A DNA stretch of 32,000 bases from Gemmata obscuriglobus (lineage in GTDB: Bacteria; Planctomycetota; Planctomycetia; Gemmatales; Gemmataceae), in the NCBI RefSeq assembly GCF_008065095.1, contig NZ_CP042911.1:480001-512000 (forward strand), in the 5' to 3' direction. Of the stretch, positions 8,426 through 22,872 are shown piece after piece. A program made the position numbers and the translations under genes. How positions within the stretch are numbered: position 1 is the first letter of the stretch; every line of letters begins with the position of its first letter. The notes beneath the pieces were generated by a model. The model was not told the DNA's origin, did not search any database, and was given only the letters and a program-made list of their open reading frames with translations.

Positions 8426-8540
8426 TTAAACTCGAACCACTGTCGCGTTTGCCGAAGTACACCCACTGAGACCGGTATAGTGGACCCCGAAAACTGGACC
8501 GCCGGTTAAGCTATACCGGAGGCCCAGGAAAGGGGAACCC

Positions 8541-8828
8541 ATGGCGGGCAAGCGGAAGAGTCACTCGGCGGCGTTCAAGGCCCAGGTCGCGCTGGCGGCC
8601 CTCAAGGGCGACAAGACCATCAACGAACTGGCGAGTCAGCACGGCGTCCACCCGACCCTGATTCATGGGTGGAAGAAGCAGTTGCTCACCGGGGCCGAGG
8701 CCGTGTTCGCCTCGGGGGCGAAGGGCACCGGCCCCCCGGAAGACAAGACGACCGAGTTGTACGAGCAGATCGGCCGCCTCAAGGTGGAACTCGACTGGGT
8801 GAAAAAAAAATCGGCCGCCCTCGGCTGA
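8541..8828 (+). CDS. IS3 family transposase OrfA (HTH)
   Basis: MAGKRKSHSAAFKAQVALAALKGDKTINELASQHGVHPTLIHGWKKQL is the classic IS3 OrfA N-terminus. It ends just after the A9 tract at 8802-8810. Confidence 0.9.
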   Translation: MAGKRKSHSAAFKAQVALAALKGDKTINELASQHGVHPTLIHGWKKQLLTGAEAVFASGAKGTGPPEDKTTELYEQIGRLKVELDWVKKKSAALG

Positions 8829-9669
8829 GGCCAAGCGTGCCCGGATCGAGGCCGAGCACCCGGAGCTGAGCGTCCGGCGCCAGTGCGAGCTGATCGGATT
8901 GAACCGCTCGACGGTGTACTACGAGCCGACCCCGGAGAGCGCGGAGAACCTGACGCTGATGCGGTTGATCGACGAGCAGTACACGACGTGCCCGTTCTAC
9001 GGGAGCCGGCGCCTGGCCGCGTGGCTGGGCACCCAGGGCCACGAGGTGAACCGCAAGCGGGTGCAGCGGCTGTTGCGGATCATGGGGTTGGAGGCCCTGT
9101 ACCCCAAGCCCAAGCTGTCGGTCGGGTCCGGGCACAAGGTGTACCCGTACCTGTTGCGGGGCGTGGCCATCGACCGGGTCCATCAGGTGTGGAGCACGGA
9201 CATCACGTACATCCCGATGCCCACCGGGTTCATGTACCTGGCCGCAACGATGGACTGGTTCAGCCGGTACGTGGTGGCCTGGCGACTGTCCAACACGTTG
9301 GACGGGTCATTCTGCCAGGACATGCTGGAGGAGGCCTTGGGCCGGGGCAAGCCGGAGGTGTTCAACACGGACCAGGGAGTCCAGTTCACGGCCGCCGCGT
9401 GGGTCGGGCGATTGGAGCGGGCCGGGGTCGCGGTGAGCATGGACGGGCGGGGCCGGTGCCTGGACAACGTGTTCGTGGAGCGCCTGTGGCGGAGCGTCAA
9501 GTACGAGGACGTGTACCTCAAGGGTTACGAGTCGGTGCCGGCCCTGGAGAGTGGGCTCCGGGCGTACTTCGGGTTCTACAACACCGAGCGGTTACACCAG
9601 TCCCTGGACTACCGCACCCCGGCTCAGGTGTATGGCGTCGGAGCCACGAAGGCCCCGACGAAACAGTAG
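8803..9669 (+). CDS. IS3 family transposase OrfB (DDE integrase core), reachable only by recoding from OrfA
   Basis: The frame opens right after TGA 8800-8802. It contains HPELSVRRQCELIGLNRSTVYY, WSTDITYI, NTDQGVQFT, RGRCLDNVFVERLWRSVKYE and the DDE/rve signature. It lies in the +1 frame relative to orfA. Confidence 0.85.
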   Translation, partial: KKNRPPSAEAKRARIEAEHPELSVRRQCELIGLNRSTVYYEPTPESAENLTLMRLIDEQYTTCPFYGSRRLAAWLGTQGHEVNRKRVQRLLRIMGLEALYPKPKLSVGSGHKVYPYLLRGVAIDRVHQVWSTDITYIPMPTGFMYLAATMDWFSRYVVAWRLSNTLDGSFCQDMLEEALGRGKPEVFNTDQGVQFTAAAWVGRLERAGVAVSMDGRGRCLDNVFVERLWRSVKYEDVYLKGYESVPALESGLRAYFGFYNTERLHQSLDYRTPAQVYGVGATKAPTKQ

Positions 9670-9747
9670 CGAAGGATAGCAACTTTTTGGTCTAGACAAT
9701 GGGGTCCACTGTACGGTTCACGGCTCACAGACAGGCACGGCAAGTTG

Positions 9748-9757
9748 CTTCCATCAA
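9748..9757. repeat. left copy of the 10-bp target-site duplication CTTCCATCAA of the ISAs1 element
   Basis: An identical decamer directly abuts both inverted repeats (9748-9757 and 11066-11075). Confidence 0.85.
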
Positions 9758-11065
9758 CAGGGCAAACGCACTCAATCCCCTAGGAATCGCTGGATTCTAG
9801 CTAATTTTGAGGCGTGTGATCGAGCGGCCATCGCTCGCCTCCTGCGCATGTGCGGCCCCGCCTCCATATGATTCTGGCGCGCCCTCACCGCCTCGGAGTC
9901 TGCCGATGAGTGCCGCCCCCGGCCCACGCCCGTTAATCGAGTACCTGTCCCAGATCCCGGATCCGCGGGTCGAGTTGAAGTGCTTCCACGACTTGATTGA
10001 TGTACTCATGATCGTGACCTGTGGGACGATCGTCGGGGCCGATGACTTCGTGTCGATCGCCGAGTTCGCGCGGGCCAAGGAGTCCTGGTTCCGGGACCGG
10101 CTGGGGCTGACGCTGCGCAACGGGATTCCGTCCCACGACACCCTCAACCGGGTGTTCGCGCTGGTCCGCCCGGAGGCGTTCGGGCGGTGCTTCCGGGCGT
10201 GGGTCGCGGACGCCGCCGAGGGCCTCCGGGTGCCCCACATCCCGATCGACGGGAAGACCATGCGGGGGTCCAAGCGGGTCACCGGCACGGGGGCTCGCAA
10301 GGCCACACACATCGTCAGCGCATGGGCTCAGCAGTTGGGCCTCACGTTGGCCCAGGTGAAGACCGACGAGAAGTCCAACGAGATCACCGCGATCCCGGAA
10401 CTGCTGGAGCGGCTGGACCTCGCGGGGGCCCTGGTGAGCATCGACGCGATGGGCACCCAGAAGGACATCGCCCAGCAGATCGTGGCCGCCAAGGGGGACT
10501 ACCTGCTGGCGGTCAAGGACAACCAGCCGCGGCTGCTCGAGGACATCCAGCGGTTGGCCGAGGGGGCCCTAGAGGCGAGCTACGCGGGCCGCTCGACCGA
10601 CCTCAACGAAGGAACGGGCCACGGGCGCGAGGAGATGCGGTTCTGCTTCGTGATCGACGACCTGGAGTCGATCCGGGACCGGAATGTGTGGCCCCGGTTG
10701 CGGTCCGTCGTGGTGCTCGTCAGCAGCCGCACGGTCGCCGGTAGGACGAGCGACGAGGTGCGGTATTACATCAGCTCGCGGAAGGCATCGGCCAAGCGGT
10801 TCCAAACGTGGATCCGGGCTCATTGGTGCATCGAGAATTCATGCCATTGGGTGCTGGATGTCGCGTTCCGAGAAGACGACCACCGACTCCGTGAAGGGCA
10901 CGGCCCGCAGAATATGGCCCTCGTGCGCAAGATCGCCTTGGCGATGTTGAAGAAGGCAAACGCCAAATGTGGGATCAAGAACCGGCGACTCAAGGCCGGA
11001 TGGGATAATACCTACCTCGAACAGGTACTACTGAAAAATCCCGAGGATTGAGTGCGTTTGCCCTG
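9758..11065 (+). mobile_element. ISAs1-family insertion sequence (1308 bp) with perfect 21-bp terminal inverted repeats
   Basis: CAGGGCAAACGCACTCAATCC at 9758-9778 is the exact reverse complement of 11045-11065. The element is flanked by a 10-bp direct repeat and carries a single transposase gene. Confidence 0.9.
9906..11051 (+). CDS. ISAs1 family transposase (H-repeat-associated type)
   Basis: Motifs IPDPRVE.K..H.L.D.L......I.GA..F..I..F, IDGKT.RGS, SIDAMGTQKDIA..I....GDYLLAVKDNQP, RYYISS and HW.IEN..HWVLDV.F.ED are present. The start was set at ATG 9906; the track ORF begins at 9807. Confidence 0.9.
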   Translation: MSAAPGPRPLIEYLSQIPDPRVELKCFHDLIDVLMIVTCGTIVGADDFVSIAEFARAKESWFRDRLGLTLRNGIPSHDTLNRVFALVRPEAFGRCFRAWVADAAEGLRVPHIPIDGKTMRGSKRVTGTGARKATHIVSAWAQQLGLTLAQVKTDEKSNEITAIPELLERLDLAGALVSIDAMGTQKDIAQQIVAAKGDYLLAVKDNQPRLLEDIQRLAEGALEASYAGRSTDLNEGTGHGREEMRFCFVIDDLESIRDRNVWPRLRSVVVLVSSRTVAGRTSDEVRYYISSRKASAKRFQTWIRAHWCIENSCHWVLDVAFREDDHRLREGHGPQNMALVRKIALAMLKKANAKCGIKNRRLKAGWDNTYLEQVLLKNPED

Positions 11066-13033: not shown

Positions 13034-14701
13034 GTGAGAACGCGAAGCGGGCGCGGCGGCGTGCTGGACCCGATCGTGCGGGCCGCGCTTGCGGCCGTGC
13101 GGCTGGGCGAACTGTCCGACGGCGAACTGCTCGCCCGGTTCGTTGCGACCCGGGACGAGGAGGCGTTCGCCGAACTGGTGCGCCGGCTCGGGTCGACCGT
13201 ATACGGGGTGTGTCACCGCGTCCTCGGCACCCGCGCCGACGCCGAAGACGCCTTCCAGGTCACATTTCTGGTGCTGGCCCGCAAGGCCGACACGGTCCGA
13301 CCGCCCGGGCGGGTCGCGGCGTGGCTGCACGGGGTCGCCGTGCTGACCGCCCGCAAGGCCCGCGCCGGGCGGCTCCGGCGGTTCGCCCGCGAACGCGCGC
13401 TCGGCGACACGCCCGAGCCATCTGCCGTATACACGCCGCCGGAGCCGGACCTCGGTCGGGTGCTGGACGAGGAGATCCAGCGGCTCCCGGACAAGTACCG
13501 GGCGGCGGTGGTGCTGTGCGAGGTGCGCGGGCTGACCGTCGCCCAGACCGCGGCCGAACTCGGGCTGCCGGTCGGCACGGTGGCCAGCCGGTTGGCCCGC
13601 GGGCGCGCCCTGCTGGCTTCGCGGCTCACCCGCCGCGGGGTCGCCGGCGCCGCGGCCGTGGGCGCCGCGGGCGGGCTCGCGAGCACCGCGATGGCCGCAC
13701 CGGCCAAGCTCTTCGGGTCCGCAGTTTCGGTTGCGTTCTCCGGGTCACAATGCGCCCCGGCAGGCGCGCAACTGCTTCTCAACGAGGTACTACGAGCCAT
13801 GAGCCTGAGCAAACTTCGCGCGTTCGCGGTCGCGACGGTGCTGAGCGGCGCGGCCGCCCTTGGCGGCGCCGGCCTGCTCCCGTCGGGGGCCGCGCCGGCG
13901 CTTGCTGCGCCGGTTCCCAAAGCCGCCCCGGGCGCCGCCGACCCGCTCGACCGGGTCAAGGTCGACAACATCGCCGGGCTGCTCAAGGTCGAGGCGATCC
14001 GCAAGGACATCCAACTGACCGCCGAGCAGGCCAAGAAGGTGGACGAGCTGCGCGGCCGGCGCAAGCAGGCGGTTGTGCCGAACGTGATCCAGCAGGGGCC
14101 GGTCGGCGGTGTTGTGATTGGCCCGGCAATGCCCGCCCGCCCGGCAATTCCTGTCGGCCCGGCAATGCCCGTCGGCCCGGCAATTCCCGTCGGGGGTGGC
14201 ATCCAAGTCGTGGACGTGGCCGTCGGGTTCAGTGGTATGGAGTCGCCCAGCGACCCCGAGTTTTACAAGGCCGCCGCCGAGATTCTGAAGCCCGAACAGA
14301 TGCGCCGGCTGAAGCAGCTCTCGCTGCAAGCGAAGGGACCGGTCGTGCTGCTCGACCGCCGGGTGATTCGGGCGCTCGGGCTGTCCGCCGAGCAAGAAGA
14401 CAAGATCGAAGCCGTGGCGCCCCCGGACCGGAGCAAGAACGGCGGCACGCTGGCGGTTCGGATGGTGAACGGGCGCGTCGAGGATCCGGAGGCCGAGCGG
14501 GACGTGGCCGCGTGGGAGGCCGCCCTCAAGGTGCTCACCGCCGAGCAGCGTGCCAAGTGGGACGGCCTCGTCGGCAAAGTGCTCCCGGCGGCCGAGTTGC
14601 GAAAGGCCCAAATCGTGTCGCTGGAGGAAATCAAGAACCTGATGCCCAACCTGCCGAACGTACCGAACATCAACCCGATCCCGGTGCCCCCGCCGGGCTG
14701 A
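13034..14701 (+). CDS. ECF (sigma-70 family) RNA polymerase sigma factor fused to a TM segment and an extracytoplasmic LTXXQ-repeat domain
   Basis: Sigma2 (AFAELVRR....VYGVCHRVLG...DAEDAFQVTFLVLARKA) and sigma4 (RLPDKYRAAVVLCEVRGLTVAQTAAELGLPVGTVASRLARGRALL) regions are present. A hydrophobic helix follows (LRAFAVATVLSGAAALGGAGLL), then about 270 further residues. Confidence 0.85.
   Translation: MRTRSGRGGVLDPIVRAALAAVRLGELSDGELLARFVATRDEEAFAELVRRLGSTVYGVCHRVLGTRADAEDAFQVTFLVLARKADTVRPPGRVAAWLHGVAVLTARKARAGRLRRFARERALGDTPEPSAVYTPPEPDLGRVLDEEIQRLPDKYRAAVVLCEVRGLTVAQTAAELGLPVGTVASRLARGRALLASRLTRRGVAGAAAVGAAGGLASTAMAAPAKLFGSAVSVAFSGSQCAPAGAQLLLNEVLRAMSLSKLRAFAVATVLSGAAALGGAGLLPSGAAPALAAPVPKAAPGAADPLDRVKVDNIAGLLKVEAIRKDIQLTAEQAKKVDELRGRRKQAVVPNVIQQGPVGGVVIGPAMPARPAIPVGPAMPVGPAIPVGGGIQVVDVAVGFSGMESPSDPEFYKAAAEILKPEQMRRLKQLSLQAKGPVVLLDRRVIRALGLSAEQEDKIEAVAPPDRSKNGGTLAVRMVNGRVEDPEAERDVAAWEAALKVLTAEQRAKWDGLVGKVLPAAELRKAQIVSLEEIKNLMPNLPNVPNINPIPVPPPG
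14120..14191 (+). repeat. in-frame tandem repeat, 4 x 18 bp (GGCCCGGCAAT[G/T]CCCGTC), encoding GPA(M/I)PV hexapeptides
   Basis: Four consecutive 18-nt units at 14120-14137, 14138-14155, 14156-14173 and 14174-14191, all inside the ECF extension. Confidence 0.9.
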
Positions 14702-15107
14702 TCGCGGCCTCGGCCGAGCGCACCTGGTCGTGGCGGCCCCGCCCGGCCGAAAGCTCTCCAACAAGGTGCAGAAGGGCCGCGGGGTTGAACGGCTTCGACA
14801 GCACCGCGGCCGCGCCCGCCGCGTGCGCGGCCGCCGGGAACGCGCTGCCGCCCCGCGGCGGCTCACCGGTCATGGCGACCACCACCGCCTCCGGGTCCAG
14901 GGCGCGCAACTGCCGGATCGTTTCCAGCCCGTCCAGGACGGGCATGAACTGGTCGCACACGACGACCGCGGCGGCGCGCCGCGCGTACGCCTGGACCCCG
15001 GCCCGCCCGTTCGAAGCCTCGGACACCTCGTGCCCGGCCTCCTCGAACACCATGCGCAGCAGGAGTTGCACCTGCGGGTCGTCGTCGATCAGAAGAACGT
15101 GAGCCAC
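14670..15107 (-). CDS. stand-alone response regulator receiver (CheY-like)
   Basis: Motifs VLLIDDD, the phospho-acceptor context VVCDQFMPVLDG, AMTG and SKPF are present. The start is GTG 15107 (AAGGG 8 nt upstream) or GTG 15152. It lies downstream of and on the same strand as the hybrid kinase. Confidence 0.8.
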   Translation of the reverse strand: MAHVLLIDDDPQVQLLLRMVFEEAGHEVSEASNGRAGVQAYARRAAAVVVCDQFMPVLDGLETIRQLRALDPEAVVVAMTGEPPRGGSAFPAAAHAAGAAAVLSKPFNPAALLHLVGELSAGRGRHDQVRSAEAAISPAGAPGSG

Positions 15108-15211
15108 CGTCGCACCCTTCAACAATAAGCGTCCCGCGCGAGCGAGCCGCACGGTTTACAGCGAACACGCGCCACGCCCCAGGCACGGCGCGCACTGCTT
15201 GAGGGGGTATG

Positions 15212-18200
15212 TCAGCCGTCCAGCACCGCGCGCACCTTGCGGGCCAGCGCTTCGGCCGTGAACGGCTTCTGGAGGAACGCCACCTCGGCCGACCGCACCC
15301 CGTGCCGCACGACCGCGTCGTCGGTGTACCCCGACACGTACAGCACCCGGAGCCCGGGGCGCGACCACTGGAGCGCCTCGGCCAGTTGCCGCCCGCCCAT
15401 CCCCGGCATCACCACGTCGGTGATCAGCAGCGGGAGCGGCCCGCGGTGGGCCGCGGCCGTCTGGAGCGCTTCGCCCGCGCCGGGCGCTTCGAGCACCGTG
15501 TACCCGCGCTCGCGGAGCACCTCGCGGGCCAGCGCCCGGACCTCCGTGTCGTCTTCGACCAGCAGAACCGTTTCCGTGCCATCCGGAACGGCCGGCAGCG
15601 GCGTCGCGACCCCCGACGAACCCGGGCCGGCGCCGGCGGCGGGGAAGTACACCTGGAACGTGGTCCCGTGACCGATCACGGAGTCCACCTCGATGTGCCC
15701 GCCCGCCTGCTCGACCACGCCGTGAACCACCGCGAGCCCCAGCCCGGTGCCCCGGCCCGCCCCCTTGGTGGTGAAGAACGGCTCGAACAGCCGCGCCTTC
15801 ACCTCGTCGGACATCCCGCACCCGGTGTCGGTCACGGAGAGCAGGACGTACCGCGCCCCGTCGCGCTCGACGTTGCTGGTCTCGACGGTGAGCCGGCCGC
15901 CGGTGGGCATCGCGTCGCGCGCGTTCACCACCAGGTTCATCAGCACCTGTTCCGCCTGCCCGGGGTCGGCCACCACCTGCGCCAGCTCCGGGTCCGCCAC
16001 CGTCGTCAGCTCGATGTCCTCGCCGATCAGCCGGCGCAGCAGCCGCTCGGCCTCGGCCACCACCACGTTGAGCGACAGCGGGCGCGGCTGGATCACCTCC
16101 TGGCGGCTGAACGCGAGCAGTTGCCGGGTGAGCCCGGCCGCCCGCTCGCCGGCCTTGACGATCTCGCCGACCAGGGTCCGCTCCCGCCCGGTCAGGCGGT
16201 CGCCGAGCATCCCGCCGAACCCCAGGATCACGGTGAGCAGGTTGTTGAAGTCGTGCGCCACCCCGCCCGCCAGCCGCCCCACCGCTTCCATCTTCTGGGA
16301 CTGGAGGAGCTGGGCCTCCAACTGCTTGAGCGGGCTCACGTCGGTCTGGATCGCGACGAAGTGGGTCAGCGCGCCCGCCCCGTCGCGGACCGGGGCCACC
16401 GTCAGCGCGTTCCAGAACGGCTTGCCGTCCTTGCGGTAGTTGAGCAGCTCGACCAGCGCGGCCCGCCCGTCCCGCAGCGCCGCGCGGACGGCCGCCACCG
16501 CGCTCGGGTCGGTGCCCTTGCCCTGGAGGAACCGGCAGTTGCGGCCCAGCGCCTCGGCGGCGGGGTAGCCGGTCATCCGCTCGAACCCCGGGTTCACGTA
16601 CACCAGGGGGTGGTCCGGCCGGGTGGCGTCGGCGATCGCGACCCCCTGGGGGAACGCCGCCAGCGCCCGGTCGCGGAGCCGCATCTGCTCCTCCGCCCGC
16701 CGCCGCTCGACGAACTGGGCGATCAGGTCCGCGGCGCCGCCGAGGGCCTCGCGCGCCGGGGCGCCGAGCGCGGTCCGGGCGAACGTGGCCAGCACCCCGA
16801 CCAGCCGCCCCTCGACCAGCAGCGGGTACCCGGCGAACCCGACCAGCCCCGCACTCCGGACGCGCTCCGGCTCGCCCGTCAGGGGGTCGTCGGCGACCGC
16901 ATCGGTCCAGTACGGCTTCCGCTCCTCGGCGATGCGCCCGACCAGCAGCCGGCCGACCGGGATCCGGGCGTACAGGCCGTCGGTGGACGCGGTCAGCCCG
17001 GCGCTGGCCCGCAGCTCCAGCACCGTGCCCCCTTCGGGCAGAACCCACACGCGCACCAGCGCCGCGCCGAGCTCGTCGACCACGGCCGCGCAGCACGCCC
17101 GCAGCGCCTCCGGCTTGTCGCCCCCGCGGGCCACCGCCGCGGCCACCCCGGCCCGCATCGCCGCGGCCCGCTCGCGCTCGGCCCGGCGCGCCTCGGCCCG
17201 GTTCCGCTCGGTCACGTCCCGGTTCACGCTCAGCACGGCCGGGCGGCCGTCGAACTCCACCACCGACGCGTTCACCTCCAGCTCCATGCGCGCCCCGTCG
17301 CGGCGGAACTGGACCGTCTCGAACTGGTACACGTCGCGCCCGTCGGTCGCCGCGGCGACGTGCACGAGTCCCCCCGCGGGGTCCGCCGACAGGTCGGCGA
17401 GCGACCGGCCGACGAACTCCTCGCGGGGCAGGCCGTACGCCCGGCACGCCGCGGGGTTCACGTCGAGCACCCGCTCGCCGTCCGGGTCGAACACCAGCAC
17501 CGGGTCGTGCGCGTGCTCGAACAGGGTGCGGTAGTACCGCTCGGACCGGGCCACCGCCTCGGCCGCCCGGCGCGAATCGGTCACGTCCCGGACGATGCTG
17601 GTGAAGAACGTCTCCCCGCCGGCCTCCCACGCGGTCACCGTCAGCTCGGCCGGGAACTCGGTCCCGTCCCGCCGCTGCGCGTCCACCGCCACCACCTGTC
17701 CCACCACCGACGACGGCCGCCCGGGCCGGTACTCGGCCAGCCGCCCCGCGTGGGCCGCCCGGTACCGGGCGGGGATGATGCGGGTGATGTCCGAGCCCGT
17801 GGCGGCCTCGGCCGGGCACCCGAACACGCGCTCCGCGCCGCGGTTCCACCCGACCACGAGCCCGTGCCGGTCGGTGGTGATGATCGCGTCCGTCGCGGAC
17901 TCCACCACCGACCGCAGCCGCTCCTCGCTCGCCCGCAGCTCCAGCTCGGCCTGCTTCCGCGCGGTGATGTCGCGGGACGTGATGACGACCCCGTCCCCGA
18001 GCGGCACCACCTGGTGCTGGAGCCAGCACGACACGCCCTCCGGCGTCTGAAACGGGAACTCCTCTTCGAGCGGCTCCCGGGTGACCACCACGCGGGCGTA
18101 CCGGTCACAGAACCCGCCGGTGCGGTTGACGGGGAGCATCTCGCACAGCCGCTGCCCGACGGTCTCGGCGCGGGTCCGCGCCACGAGGTGTTCGCCGGCC

Positions 18201-18748
18201 GGGTTCACGTCGTCGAACGTGAAGTCCGTAATCAGCCCGTCGGGGTCGCGGACGGCGGTCAGGAAGAACATGGCGTCGAGGCTGCCGTTCATCGCCGCCC
18301 GGAACCGCTCCTCGCTGGCCCGCAGCTCGGCCTCGACCCGGCGCCGCTCGGCCACCTCGCGCTCCAGCTCCTCCGGGGAGCGCATCGCGAACGCCTTCGG
18401 GATCACCGGCAGCAGCGACAGCACGGTGGCCCACGACACCACGGCGGTGGCGAGCTTGACGAGCCCGGCCAGCCGGTACGCGGGCCACCAGAAGATGATC
18501 GCCTCGATCAGGTGCGTGGTGCCGCACAGGAGGATGAACGCGCTGAACAGCCAGAACAGGTTGCGGAACGGGACATCCTTGCGGCGCCGCGCGAACAGCA
18601 CCAGCGCGATCGGGATGGCCAGGTACGCGGACCACACGCCCAGGTCGGACAGGATGTGCAGCCAGCCCAGCGGCGCGTCCCAGTTCCCGCACCGCCACCG
18701 GGCCGGGAAGTCGGACGTGTCGAACAGGGAGAGCCAAAAGTGTTGCAT
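15212..18748 (-). CDS. hybrid sensor histidine kinase: ETR1-like membrane domain, 3 PAS, GAF, LOV, HisKA, HATPase_c, receiver
   Basis: The H-box is AHDFNNLL (His codon 16255-16253). N/G boxes are NLVVNARDAM, DTGCGM and GTGLGL. The receiver context is LLITDVVMPGMGG. The LOV motif is GRNCRFLQG. The N-terminal triple-helix domain carries LCGTTHL. The start was set at ATG 18748 (MQHFW); the track ORF starts at a TTG at 18787. Confidence 0.9.
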   Translation of the reverse strand: MQHFWLSLFDTSDFPARWRCGNWDAPLGWLHILSDLGVWSAYLAIPIALVLFARRRKDVPFRNLFWLFSAFILLCGTTHLIEAIIFWWPAYRLAGLVKLATAVVSWATVLSLLPVIPKAFAMRSPEELEREVAERRRVEAELRASEERFRAAMNGSLDAMFFLTAVRDPDGLITDFTFDDVNPAGEHLVARTRAETVGQRLCEMLPVNRTGGFCDRYARVVVTREPLEEEFPFQTPEGVSCWLQHQVVPLGDGVVITSRDITARKQAELELRASEERLRSVVESATDAIITTDRHGLVVGWNRGAERVFGCPAEAATGSDITRIIPARYRAAHAGRLAEYRPGRPSSVVGQVVAVDAQRRDGTEFPAELTVTAWEAGGETFFTSIVRDVTDSRRAAEAVARSERYYRTLFEHAHDPVLVFDPDGERVLDVNPAACRAYGLPREEFVGRSLADLSADPAGGLVHVAAATDGRDVYQFETVQFRRDGARMELEVNASVVEFDGRPAVLSVNRDVTERNRAEARRAERERAAAMRAGVAAAVARGGDKPEALRACCAAVVDELGAALVRVWVLPEGGTVLELRASAGLTASTDGLYARIPVGRLLVGRIAEERKPYWTDAVADDPLTGEPERVRSAGLVGFAGYPLLVEGRLVGVLATFARTALGAPAREALGGAADLIAQFVERRRAEEQMRLRDRALAAFPQGVAIADATRPDHPLVYVNPGFERMTGYPAAEALGRNCRFLQGKGTDPSAVAAVRAALRDGRAALVELLNYRKDGKPFWNALTVAPVRDGAGALTHFVAIQTDVSPLKQLEAQLLQSQKMEAVGRLAGGVAHDFNNLLTVILGFGGMLGDRLTGRERTLVGEIVKAGERAAGLTRQLLAFSRQEVIQPRPLSLNVVVAEAERLLRRLIGEDIELTTVADPELAQVVADPGQAEQVLMNLVVNARDAMPTGGRLTVETSNVERDGARYVLLSVTDTGCGMSDEVKARLFEPFFTTKGAGRGTGLGLAVVHGVVEQAGGHIEVDSVIGHGTTFQVYFPAAGAGPGSSGVATPLPAVPDGTETVLLVEDDTEVRALAREVLRERGYTVLEAPGAGEALQTAAAHRGPLPLLITDVVMPGMGGRQLAEALQWSRPGLRVLYVSGYTDDAVVRHGVRSAEVAFLQKPFTAEALARKVRAVLDG

Positions 18749-18916
18749 GGCGCGCGGTCTTGGGTCCAACACGTTGCCCGGCACCAACTCTATAACATGG
18801 CTGCGACAGGCAAAGCCGGTTGGCCGCTTTCCGTGCGCGGCGCCTCCGCTGTGGTTGAAATGTTGTTGCCAGGCGACAACGGGCCGGCGCGAGGGGCGCT
18901 ATTTTGAGGCGGGCCG

Positions 18917-20896
18917 TCAGCGGGCGCCGACGGCCCGGAAGTTCGCTCGCGCCTGATCGAACGCCGCGACCGCCCGGGCCAGGCCGGGCGCCAACTTCTC
19001 GACCGCCTGTCGGCAGGCCGGGGCGAGCGCCCCGAGTTCGCCGAGCCGGCGCTCCAGTTCGGCCAGGGCCTGCTGCTGGCGGGCGCGATATTTCACGACC
19101 AGCGCCTGTTGCTCGGCCGGAGACGTGGCGCCCCGCGGGTCGAACCGGAACGCCCGCAGCACCTCGTTCTTCCAGGCCATGACGTTGTTCGTCAGGGCGT
19201 CCCCGAACCCTTTGATCCCGCGCACCCGGTCCCACTCCACGTCGGCCGCCGTCACGACCCCGGCGGCGGCCAGGGTCTGTTTTCGCCCCGCCCCGATCTT
19301 CGGGATTTCGGCGTCCGCGAGCGGGTGGAGTTGGAGGTGCCGGCGGAGCGCCGCCGCTTCCGCGTGTGCGGCCAGTTGTCGCACCTCCCCTTGATACTGC
19401 GACGCCAGGGCGCGGCACTCGTCGACGAGGCGCCGGACGCGGCGGTCCCCGTCCGCGTGATCGCGCTGGTACGCGCGGACCCGCCGGCGCCACTTGTCTT
19501 CGAGGTCTGCGAGGTCGTCGCTCGCGTGCCGGTACGCCGCGCGGCGGCGGCGGTACTCCTGCCGCCACGGCGACCGCGCGACCAGCACCGCCAGCCACCC
19601 GCCGAACGCCAGCGCACCCAAAAGGGCGATGACGCACATGAACTCGCGGACCAGCCCCAGCGGCATCGCCAGCGCGCACAGTGCGGCCGCGCCGCCGACG
19701 ATCCGCGTCACGTTCCGGTGCTCGTCGAGCCCCTCCGGGAGCGGGTCCGGCGCGGGGGCGGCCGGCGGGGCGAACCGGGCGCGGTCGTAGCGGAACTCGG
19801 CCGGTTGGGTGCGGCCCAACCGCTCCAGCACGTCCCGCAACTTCTCCTCATCGACCTCGAAAGTGCCCGAAGTGCCGCCGGCGCCGAAGAAGTACTCCGG
19901 CCCGCCCCGGGCCGCCAGCCGGCACCACACGCACCCGCCAACGGCCCCGCGCCAGTACCGGTGCCCCGGGTCGGCCGCGCAGAGCACGGATTCCTGTTCG
20001 AGGGCCTGGAGCGCGGGCACCCACTCGGCGGCGCTGGGGCGCCCCCCGGCCTCGCTCCCGCGCTCGAACGCCCGGCAGAACAGGTTCCCGAGGTCGGGCG
20101 GGATGTCGGCGAAGGTCGGCGTGTGCGGCGGCGGCGCCATTCCCCAGGTGTGCGCCCGCGGCCCCTGGGCGAACTTGAACCCGGCGATCAGTTCCTCGAA
20201 CGACGGGTCGTCCGGCCCGGTGTACACCCCGGCGTAGGGGTGCCGGCCGACGAACAGGAGCTGATAAATCAGCACCGCCAGCCCGAACCGGTCGTGGTTC
20301 TCGGTCCGCACCAGCCCGCGCAGGTGCTGGCCCTGTAACTCCGGCGGGGTGTAGTGCGGGGTGCCCACGTCGCACAGGTACGACGCGCCGCCGGCGCGCA
20401 CCTGGAACGAGTCGCAATCGATCAGCCCGATGCGGGCGTCCGGCAGCACCAGCGCGTTGCTCTGGTTCACGTCGCACACCAGGCACCCGGCCTTGTGCAC
20501 CTCGTCGAACGCGGCCGCCAAGTTCCGCGCGGCGGCGACCTGAAAGGTCCAGCCGGCGCGCGGGAACGCCTTGAGCCGCATGACCGGGTTGTAGAGCTGC
20601 TGGACCGGGTGGCCGTTCGACACGCGCGGCATGACGAACCCGGCCGCGGCGCGGGTCCGCGCGTCGAACAGCACCGCGGTCGGCCACGCGGTCATTTGCT
20701 TGAGCGCCGGGCTGGCGAGCGCGACCATCGCGGCCAGCTTCTCGCCGCGCCGCGGGTCGCCCGGCTTGAGGTACACTTTCGCGACCTGGGCGGGGTCGTT
20801 GGGCAGGGCGAACACGGCCCCCTCGCCGCCCGACGCGAGGTGCGCGGCGAGCGGGAACGGGCGCCCCTGGGCGTCGATCAGTGCGGGTGGGGTCAT
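18917..20896 (-). CDS. yegI: membrane-anchored Ser/Thr protein kinase of the vWA-PP2C-kinase triad (YegI-like) with C-terminal helix-hairpin-helix motifs
   Basis: Kinase elements are GGEGAVF (G-loop), VAKVY (Lys), CDVNQSN (catalytic loop), IDCDSF (DFG equivalent) and GTPHYTPPE. A Cys cluster (C..H....CVWC) and two hydrophobic helices follow. HhH-like IPKIGAGRKQTLAAAGV and IKGFGDALTNNV lie near the C-terminus. The ATG overlaps the stop of the PP2C gene (ATGA). Confidence 0.85.
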   Translation of the reverse strand: MTPPALIDAQGRPFPLAAHLASGGEGAVFALPNDPAQVAKVYLKPGDPRRGEKLAAMVALASPALKQMTAWPTAVLFDARTRAAAGFVMPRVSNGHPVQQLYNPVMRLKAFPRAGWTFQVAAARNLAAAFDEVHKAGCLVCDVNQSNALVLPDARIGLIDCDSFQVRAGGASYLCDVGTPHYTPPELQGQHLRGLVRTENHDRFGLAVLIYQLLFVGRHPYAGVYTGPDDPSFEELIAGFKFAQGPRAHTWGMAPPPHTPTFADIPPDLGNLFCRAFERGSEAGGRPSAAEWVPALQALEQESVLCAADPGHRYWRGAVGGCVWCRLAARGGPEYFFGAGGTSGTFEVDEEKLRDVLERLGRTQPAEFRYDRARFAPPAAPAPDPLPEGLDEHRNVTRIVGGAAALCALAMPLGLVREFMCVIALLGALAFGGWLAVLVARSPWRQEYRRRRAAYRHASDDLADLEDKWRRRVRAYQRDHADGDRRVRRLVDECRALASQYQGEVRQLAAHAEAAALRRHLQLHPLADAEIPKIGAGRKQTLAAAGVVTAADVEWDRVRGIKGFGDALTNNVMAWKNEVLRAFRFDPRGATSPAEQQALVVKYRARQQQALAELERRLGELGALAPACRQAVEKLAPGLARAVAAFDQARANFRAVGAR

Positions 20897-21645
20897 GGGC
20901 GGCGGGCGGCTAGTACGAGCGTCTTGTCGTCGTCGGTGCGCTCGTTCACGCGGGCGGAGTTGAGGAACTGACGCAGCGGCTCGAACAGGGCTTCGGTGTC
21001 GGGCTCGGTCCGGAGCCGCCGGAACAGCGGTGTGAAGAACCCGGCGTGCGGGGCGCGGGCGGCGAAATCCAGTGCCAGGCGCTGGAGCCCGTCTGTCAGT
21101 GCGGCGAGTTCGGTCACCCGGTCGGCGACCACCTCGGTCCGGATCGCGCCGGCGAACCCGTCGTCGGTCAGGAAGTCGGTGGCGTTGGCGTACTCCGCCG
21201 GTTCGGGCCAGAACACGACGCGGTACCCGTCACCCGCCCCGCACACGATCGCCCCGTCGCCGAGTTGTGCGAACGCCGCGGTCTCCGGGCCGACCAGGGC
21301 CACGAGCGCCGTCGAGGCCAACTCGCGGGGCGGCACCTCCAGGGCGTCGGCCCGCGCCAGGACGGCCGAGCGGACGGCGGCGAACAGGTCGACGAGCGCC
21401 GCCGGCGCGCACAGGTCGGCGGGCACCGCCCGCGTCACGAGGCGCACGAACTCGTCGCACACCAGTTCGGCCCCGACATCGGACCGGGACGCGCTGCCCG
21501 CGCCGTCGGCCACGGCCACGAGCAGCCAGGCGCCGCCCGGACCGCAGTGGCAGACCCGGAACGCGTCCTGACAGGGAACGCTCCGGGCCGCGTGGGAGGT
21601 GCCGGGGGCGCTTTCGCCGAGGGTCCGCCAAATCGGGTCGGTCAC
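20893..21645 (-). CDS. yegK: PP2C-family Ser/Thr phosphatase of the triad (YegK/PphC-like)
   Basis: Motifs GTSH....PCQDA, VAVADGAGSAS, LGDGAIV, AEYANATDFLTD, LTDGLQRLAL, PHAGFFTPLF and VNERTDDDKTLVLA are present. The GTG start at 21645 overlaps the vWA stop (GTGA). The longer track ORF to 21936 runs out of frame through the vWA gene. Confidence 0.85.
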   Translation of the reverse strand: MTDPIWRTLGESAPGTSHAARSVPCQDAFRVCHCGPGGAWLLVAVADGAGSASRSDVGAELVCDEFVRLVTRAVPADLCAPAALVDLFAAVRSAVLARADALEVPPRELASTALVALVGPETAAFAQLGDGAIVCGAGDGYRVVFWPEPAEYANATDFLTDDGFAGAIRTEVVADRVTELAALTDGLQRLALDFAARAPHAGFFTPLFRRLRTEPDTEALFEPLRQFLNSARVNERTDDDKTLVLAARRP

Positions 21646-22391
21646 AGGCTGGCCCACCCGGCCGGCGGCGCCAGTTTGACCTGCTCCTCCTGGCCCGGGT
21701 TGGAGTGGGACACGCTCCGCTGCGACTGCGACAGCCAGAGGAACATCTCCTTGAAGCTGTACCCCTTGAGGTGCAACGGCTGGCGAACGGAGATCTGCTT
21801 CAGCCGGTCCATGTTCGCCCCCTCCACGCCCACGGCGAAGAACGCGAACTGCTTCTTTTCCTCCCCCTCGCGCACGCGGGCCGCCGCGGCCTCCCACGCG
21901 TCGGTGGGTTCGCCGTCGGTGATCAAGAAGATCCACGGGCGGTAGAAGTGGAGCCCGTTCTGCCGGTACTCGCGCTTGCGCTCGGTGACCGCGTCGATCG
22001 CCTTCAGGATCGCCGCGCCCATCGGCGTTTCGCCGTTCGCGGTCAGAACGGGCGGGGTGAACTGCGATGTCGTCACGAACGGGGTGACGGTCCGGACCGT
22101 GTCGCCGAACGTGACGACGGACACCTCGACGCGCTGGGCCGCGAGCGGGTCGTTCGTCACGTCCGCCTGGTACACGCGCAGGCCCTCGTTGACCAAATCG
22201 ATCCGGGTCGTGCCGCCGGAAACGACCCGGTACGTCTTCCCGTCAACCTGGGCGGTGCGTCCCAGGTCGCGGCCGGTGCCGCTCACCACTTCCGCCATCG
22301 ACCCGGAGGTGTCGATGAGCAGCACGCACGGGCACCGCGGTTCCGGGTTGGTCGCCAGGGCGACATCACTGAACGGGATTTGTTCGGCCAC
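21642..22391 (-). CDS. yegL: TerY/YegL-type von Willebrand factor A domain protein
   Basis: AEQIPFSDVALATNPEPRCPCVLLIDTSGSM (MIDAS DxSxS), TPMGAA, YRPWIFLITDGEPTD and FAFFAVGVEGANM are present. The start was set at GTG 22391, which matches the family N-terminus; the track ORF starts at GTG 22445. Confidence 0.85.
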   Translation of the reverse strand: MAEQIPFSDVALATNPEPRCPCVLLIDTSGSMAEVVSGTGRDLGRTAQVDGKTYRVVSGGTTRIDLVNEGLRVYQADVTNDPLAAQRVEVSVVTFGDTVRTVTPFVTTSQFTPPVLTANGETPMGAAILKAIDAVTERKREYRQNGLHFYRPWIFLITDGEPTDAWEAAAARVREGEEKKQFAFFAVGVEGANMDRLKQISVRQPLHLKGYSFKEMFLWLSQSQRSVSHSNPGQEEQVKLAPPAGWASL

Positions 22392-22872
22392 GAGCGACCC
22401 CCGAACGGCTTTGAGCGGCGTTCTGCCTCGGACGAGTATATTCACACCTCGCCGCGGCGGGCAGTCGCGGGCGGTCGGCGGCCCGTCACCGTTCTGCCGG
22501 CCGTCAGGGCCGGACCGACTTCACGGCGGCGTTGCCGAACCAGACGACTCGGTAGTTTTGGTCCAGGGGGTCGAGGCCGCACGCACGCTGCTGGGGGCAG
22601 CTAAGAATTCGCGCCGACGCACTCACACGCACGCCCATCACCCGCCTCGTATCGCCTCGACGCAACGGCGCGAATTAAGCCGCCGCGCGGGCGCCGTTCC
22701 AAGTGAAATGACGCCCGGTCGGATGCCAGATCCGGCCGGGCCGACGCCGCACGCTTGATCAAACTCAAAGGGGGTTGGCACCGAGATGCAGTTAATCAAC
22801 TGTGACGGCTCGGCCGACCGGCGAGGCGTGGACGTGGTCACTCCGAAGGCCCGGATCAGGGCAGCCGCCCGG

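Follow-up and report, generated by a model that had tools for sequence, protein, structure and literature searches.

Putative ethylene receptors have already been reported in bacteria of many different kinds, and beyond plants the perception of ethylene has been shown in no more than two bacteria and one fungus. In plants, ethylene signalling runs mainly via CTR1 and not through a phosphorelay. The full list of the seven ethylene-binding residues of Arabidopsis ETR1 (AtETR1) is reportedly given by Wang et al. in 2006. Seven residues are necessary for AtETR1 to bind ethylene (PMC6682694), and the roles of C65, D25, H69, and K91 have been stated (PMC11819568). The earlier note on this DNA named the cyanobacterial protein SynEtr1 as the case in which ethylene binding by a bacterial protein had been shown. 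That statement holds, and AzoEtr1 of Azospirillum brasilense, published in 2025, now has to be set beside it. Both proteins have been assayed for binding with 14C-ethylene as constructs of residues 1-130. AzoEtr1 does bind the labelled gas, and mutants of it, D35A and C75A, were made to serve as controls without binding (PMC11819568).

The window analysed here is a stretch of 32,000 nucleotides of Gemmata obscuriglobus DNA, to which all positions below refer. On its minus strand lies the gene of a hybrid sensor histidine kinase (15212..18748), 1,178 amino acids long when read from the ATG at 18748, a start taken from the list of ORFs and from the starts of homologues. The full ORF covers 15212-18787 on the minus strand, with mechanical extension reaching a TTG at 18787, and the third-position GC of the kinase ORF is 0.96. 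The ATG is the likely start because the closest homologues and the orthologue from Gemmata algarum JC673, a strain of a species isolated from algal mats, begin at the aligned residue. The G. algarum orthologue is also 1,178 amino acids long, with 95% identity. The numbering Cys75 and His79 adopted in the earlier note is thus right for the homologue-supported ATG and wrong for the upstream TTG. From the N terminus, the domains are arranged as the membrane domain, three PAS domains, a GAF domain, a LOV domain, HisKA, HATPase_c, and a receiver, and the gene product is, as read from these predicted domains, a hybrid two-component histidine kinase.

The N-terminal membrane domain matches the Pfam family ETR1_N (PF25487) over residues 27-121 (18386..18670, minus strand) with an E-value of 5.6e-37 and a score of 126.3 bits, where the gathering score is 27 bits, and the match covers profile positions 2-96 of 97. 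The domain is predicted to comprise three transmembrane helices, and the interval proposed earlier for it (18374-18670, which corresponds to residues 27-125) coincides with this Pfam envelope. The domain peptide ILSDLGVWSAYLAIPIALVLFARRRKDVPFRNLFWLFSAFILLCGTTHLIEAI and the helix-3 segment TAVVSWATVLSLLPVIP quoted in that proposal are found exactly in the minus-strand translation. The AtETR1 sequence used in that proposal proved to be correct, and the full-length reference that we used is identical to UniRef P49333 and NP_176808.3. BLASTP with composition-based statistics aligns the domain with AtETR1 at 36% identity over 112 residues (E = 2e-17). The gapless alignment that had been claimed runs through helices 1 and 2, and a single 3-residue indel falls in the loop ahead of helix 3. 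In a profile-profile comparison (hhalign), the query profile was built from 56 sequences closely related to the window domain, most of them metagenomic, and it matched a profile of 96 plant domains with a probability of 99.0 and an E-value of 4e-18. Pairwise and HMM alignments, which had been suggested as a check, are significant with Pfam ETR1_N, with AtETR1, and with the 96 plant domains.

The closest characterized relative in these comparisons was reached by tblastn of plasmid records, which returned a homologue from A. brasilense Sp7 with 42% identity in the domain. The published Azoetr1 cloning primer matches the start of the Sp7 ORF exactly, confirming that this is the AzoEtr1 locus. Every comparison made at the level of sequence, including that with the ethylene-binding AzoEtr1, supports the reading of the domain as ETR1-type, and confirms by homology that the N-terminal membrane domain of the kinase is truly related to the domain with which plant ETR1 binds ethylene.

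The residues reported as essential for ethylene binding in AtETR1 are found in the Gemmata kinase in the same register. In a MAFFT alignment of 272 sequences, the columns of ETR1 D25, Y32, I35, P36, I62, C65, H69, and K91 are occupied by Asp35, Tyr42, Ile45, Pro46, Ile72, Cys75, His79, and Lys98, respectively, and each of the eight is kept in at least 268 of the 272 sequences. The earlier statement that all seven binding residues are conserved agrees with this alignment as well as with BLASTP and hhalign. On helix 1, the codon of Asp35 (GAC, 18644..18646, minus strand), which is equivalent to D25 of ETR1 and D35 of AzoEtr1, is followed by the Tyr42-Pro46 segment (18611..18625, minus strand), in which Tyr42, Ile45, and Pro46 correspond to ETR1 Y32, I35, and P36. 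The Ile72 codon (ETR1 I62) lies at 18533..18535 (minus strand). The predicted Cu(I) ligands are Cys75 (ETR1 C65; TGC, 18524..18526, minus strand) and His79 (ETR1 H69; CAC, 18512..18514, minus strand), whose codons were placed correctly by the first reading; each ligand is present in 271 of the 272 sequences. Lys98 (18455..18457, minus strand), which is the helix-3 partner of the Asp residue and the equivalent of ETR1 K91 and AzoEtr1 K98, is a Lys in 268 of 272. Biased transmembrane composition can inflate similarity scores, and the resemblance to ETR1 might accordingly be suspected of being a chance likeness between hydrophobic helices. This is excluded by the Pfam and BLASTP E-values (5.6e-37 and 2e-17), the 99% hhalign probability, and the residue register; the polar and ligand residues fall in exact register, and we give chance virtually no weight. 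The conservation of the seven residues predicts, without proving, that the Gemmata domain binds ethylene.

Ahead of helix 1, residues 9-23 form a conserved segment, FDTSDFPARWRCGNW, with a nearly invariant Cys20 (18689..18691, minus strand; Cys in 262 of 272 sequences and in AzoEtr1). The segment is common to AzoEtr1 and is absent at that position in plant ETR1. It presumably lies outside the cytoplasm, and its role may be in dimerisation or in the handling of metal. Cyanobacterial receptors have one N-terminal Cys (PMC6682694), and it is on this account that a role of Cys20 in dimerisation is suggested.

The hydropathy profile has three peaks, centred near residues 43, 75, and 106, and elsewhere in the protein the threshold is exceeded only once, by an isolated scanning window around residue 561, within the GAF region. 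The AlphaFold2 model, built with a 56-sequence alignment, places helices at residues 25-55, 62-84, and 91-121 with a pLDDT of 91, followed by a further helix at residues 125-136, which is predicted to be cytoplasmic. The loop joining helix 1 to helix 2 carries RRRK, which suggests an N-out/C-in orientation, as in ETR1. A sequence search of the PDB with the membrane domain gave no match even at an E-value of 10, and a Foldseek search of the AlphaFold2 model against the PDB gave non-specific helical matches only, all with an E-value of 1.9 or worse; thus, no solved structure in the PDB resembles the ethylene-binding domain by sequence or by fold.

The cytoplasmic part of the kinase, which is likewise encoded on the minus strand, begins with three PAS domains at about residues 174-266, 276-389, and 405-520 (Pfam PAS_4, PAS, and PAS_8); the interval 17381..18229 given for them stops at the last Pfam match, at residue 456. 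The GAF domain follows at residues 546-681 (16706..17113; Pfam GAF_2, E = 8.5e-11). The transmitter (15638..16279; Pfam) consists of HisKA, with His832 of the H-box encoded at 16253-16255, and HATPase_c. The motifs HDFNN, NLVVNARDA, DTGCGM, and GTGLGL were located, and the H-box and the N, G1, and G2 boxes are intact. The C-terminal receiver (15233..15568; Pfam Response_reg, E = 4.9e-17) has Asp1111 (codon 15416-15418) as its acceptor. About 60 nt downstream of the kinase, on the same strand, is a gene for a stand-alone receiver, i.e., a single-domain response regulator (14670..15152, minus strand; Pfam Response_reg, E = 2.6e-20), whose start codon is uncertain. A receiver gene is found likewise in G. 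algarum JC673 and beside AzoEtr1, and the stand-alone receiver is likely the partner of the kinase. The DNA identity of this receiver gene to that of JC673 is only 83.8%, whereas the kinase region reaches 95.8%.

The last PAS domain (residues 702-805; 16334..16645, minus strand) has the motif GRNCRFLQG, in which Cys738 (codon 16535-16537) is the adduct-forming residue. A phmmer search of the PDB with this region gave 159 matches, the best 60 of which are all LOV domains (E = 1.3e-43 to 1e-26), among them those of phototropin, YtvA, aureochrome, and LOV histidine kinases. The Asn, Asn, and Gln residues that contact the flavin in LOV domains can be read from LNYRKDGKPFWN and IQTDV. The NCBIfam models YtvA_fam and BluLightHisKinLov also match the region, at sub-threshold scores. 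Judged by its motif and its matches, the domain is a canonical LOV blue-light domain. Like the Brucella LOV-HK, the Erythrobacter EL346, and the LOV of a Chloroflexus multi-sensor hybrid kinase, it joins an NCRFLQ LOV core directly to the phospho-accepting helix. The solved fragments among the best 60 of the 159 matches are LOV domains or soluble LOV kinases, however, and none of them matches the Gemmata membrane domain.

The combination of the two sensors recurs in other proteins. With a relaxed LOV pattern and a full-length search, nine other protein clusters were found to pair an ETR1-type membrane domain with a LOV motif, and a stricter pattern found none among the 143 nearest relatives of the domain. 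Three of the nine clusters are named as Gemmataceae (G. algarum, G. palustris G18, and an Urbifossiella genome). The ten kinases with both domains range in total length from 795 to 1,254 amino acids, and the PAS array between the membrane domain and LOV is variable among them. In nine of the ten, the Cys of the LOV domain and the phospho-accepting His are spaced by 94 residues, and in the tenth by 93. This fixed spacing marks LOV as the kinase-proximal sensor, and with LOV held at that distance from His832, it is probable that the kinase combines blue-light and ethylene inputs, in the way that SynEtr1 combines ethylene with the input of its bilin photosensor.

A comparison of the two Gemmata orthologues bears on how much the membrane domain contributes to this. 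Between the window and G. algarum JC673, the DNA identity is 95.8% over 7.3 kb. Over the 125 codons of the ethylene-binding domain, the orthologues differ by 1 non-synonymous and 4 synonymous changes; for the LOV domain the respective counts are 3 and 5, and for the 140 codons of the GAF domain they are 16 and 15. The membrane and LOV domains are thus the best-conserved sensor modules of the protein. The long sensor array of three PAS domains, GAF, and LOV between the membrane domain and the kinase means that the membrane domain may add little to kinase control; it might be merely an anchor and dimerisation module, with the cytoplasmic PAS, GAF, and LOV domains doing the signalling. The five intervening sensor domains and the position of LOV, nearest to the kinase at a fixed spacing, fit such a role. 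A passive anchor would not be expected to keep eight residues nearly invariant over 272 sequences, however, or to differ less between the two Gemmata orthologues than any other part of the protein, and we consider this explanation very unlikely. The reading that we prefer, and regard as highly probable, is that the protein is a membrane-anchored hybrid histidine kinase whose first ~125 residues form an ETR1-type ethylene-binding domain, with signalling assigned by homology.

Several described receptors resemble parts of this architecture. AzoEtr1 is the nearest in the membrane domain; its D35, C75, H79, and K98 bear the same numbers as in the Gemmata kinase, it has the N-terminal Cys as well, and its gene is directly followed downstream by one for a response regulator. 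On the other hand, AzoEtr1 is 525 amino acids long and has one PAS-like region, without GAF, LOV, or receiver domains. Its host is a plant-root alphaproteobacterium, and its binding and phenotypes have been demonstrated, whereas for the Gemmata kinase ethylene binding is a prediction. The plant receptors, including Arabidopsis ETR1, have the same three-helix domain with the seven binding residues and K91, and GAF, histidine kinase, and receiver domains are also present in them. ETR1 differs in that its identity to the domain is 36% and it has a C4/C6 pair where the Gemmata kinase has one N-terminal Cys; the Gemmata kinase has three PAS domains and LOV inserted, and its kinase motifs are canonical and intact. 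GeiEtr2 of Geitlerinema PCC 7105 (PMC6682694) is also a multi-sensor protein, with the order ethylene-binding domain, PAS/PAC, GAF, kinase, and receiver; it is cyanobacterial, and a LOV domain is not among its reported domains.

In overall plan, compared by architecture, the Gemmata kinase is similar to SynEtr1 (Slr1212, UirS, PixA) of Synechocystis PCC 6803, which combines an ethylene-binding domain, a photosensor, and a histidine kinase with phosphotransfer to a response regulator. The photosensor of SynEtr1 is a bilin-binding cyanobacteriochrome GAF domain, whereas the Gemmata kinase has a LOV domain predicted to use flavin, in a planctomycete host that is not phototrophic. By this analogy, the domain pairing suggests a dual ethylene/light sensor. 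Whether the protein is a true dual-input receptor, for ethylene through the Cu(I) membrane domain and for blue light through LOV, in a non-phototrophic planctomycete from algal mats, is a question on which we find the case evenly balanced. A literature search for the ethylene-binding domain together with LOV returned nothing relevant, and no description of the fusion was found in the searchable literature.

The ethylene-binding domain itself is widespread. A HMMER scan of 1.84 billion representative proteins gave 8,153 clusters (at 50% identity) with E ≤ 0.001 and 5,863 with E ≤ 1e-10. A pattern-based genome scan, which is biased to close relatives of the window domain, found 19 loci with the domain. 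The planctomycete loci are from Gemmata, other Gemmataceae, Pirellulales, Blastopirellula marina, Rhodopirellula baltica, Gimesia, and Phycisphaeraceae, and the others are from Polyangiaceae, Vicinamibacterales, and one cyanobacterium. The Gemmata domain is therefore a member of a large, already recognised bacterial family, two members of which have been experimentally validated. That no planctomycete receptor has been studied, as the earlier note supposed, agrees with our searches of the accessible literature, in which ethylene receptor or ethylene-binding domain combined with planctomycete names returned nothing relevant; some subscription papers may list planctomycete homologues. Because only two bacterial members have been tested in a family of more than 8,000 clusters, the ETR1 fold and Cu(I) might serve here for a signal other than ethylene, such as a different small ligand (unsaturated or a pi-acceptor) or the state of copper or redox. 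In favour of such a signal, Gemmata is not known to associate with plants, and algal mats are the source of its relatives. Every ethylene-binding residue of ETR1 is kept, however, and both tested bacterial homologues with the same residue set bind ethylene; a signal other than ethylene is accordingly unlikely, in our estimate, if less so than a purely anchoring role.

With ethylene taken as the ligand, the preferred reading can be put as a sequence of steps. The three-helix transmembrane unit would presumably be dimeric, by homology, and its Cu(I) would be coordinated by Cys75 and His79 of helix 2, again by homology, with Asp35 of helix 1 and Lys98 of helix 3 positioning the copper site. Ethylene would bind to the copper, and the resulting change would pass via helix 3 and the helix at residues 125-136 into the three PAS domains, GAF, and LOV. 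These sensors would jointly set the autophosphorylation of His832, from which the phosphoryl group would move to Asp1111 of the internal receiver and/or to the stand-alone receiver ~60 nt downstream. The sequence evidence establishes to which family the domain belongs, that its key residues and the catalytic motifs are kept, what topology is predicted, and that the architecture recurs; that the kinase binds Cu(I) and ethylene, in which direction it is regulated, with which partners it exchanges phosphoryl groups, and what its physiological output is are matters that we infer. A copper-delivery gene was not seen within the window.

Immediately upstream of the kinase and on the same strand (18917-22445, minus strand) are three genes, for a vWA protein, a PP2C phosphatase, and a weakly protein-kinase-like protein. 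The PP2C ORF overlaps both flanking ORFs, and the three genes therefore seem to form a single module that has no relation to the ethylene domain. The 95.8% match to JC673 stops at about 22516 of the window and about 2233 of the JC673 sequence, inside the compared locus. On the other side, an ECF-type sigma factor with regions 2 and 4 and a long Pro/Ala/Val-rich C-terminal extension (13034-14701, plus strand) is convergent with the stand-alone receiver gene, and the 3' ends overlap by ~30 nt. Two insertion-sequence elements lie at 8481-11051 (plus strand); the first is an IS3-like pair of an HTH transposase ORF and an rve integrase ORF, and the second encodes a DDE_Tnp_1 transposase.

In its current annotation, the orthologue of the kinase is described only as 'PAS domain S-box protein', and the likely ligands of the kinase are invisible there. 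If the Gemmata protein is an ethylene receptor, it would extend ethylene perception to a phylum without a studied example. The LOV fusion is the most interesting lead of the analysis, and its recurrence provides a concrete hypothesis, namely, that one kinase reads ethylene and light together. If so, the pairing of ethylene with light known from the cyanobacterial SynEtr1 would have been reached a second time, independently. Planctomycetes often live on algae and in phototrophic mats, and ethylene might, on the dual-input reading, serve them as a cue for sunlit, phototroph-rich surfaces.
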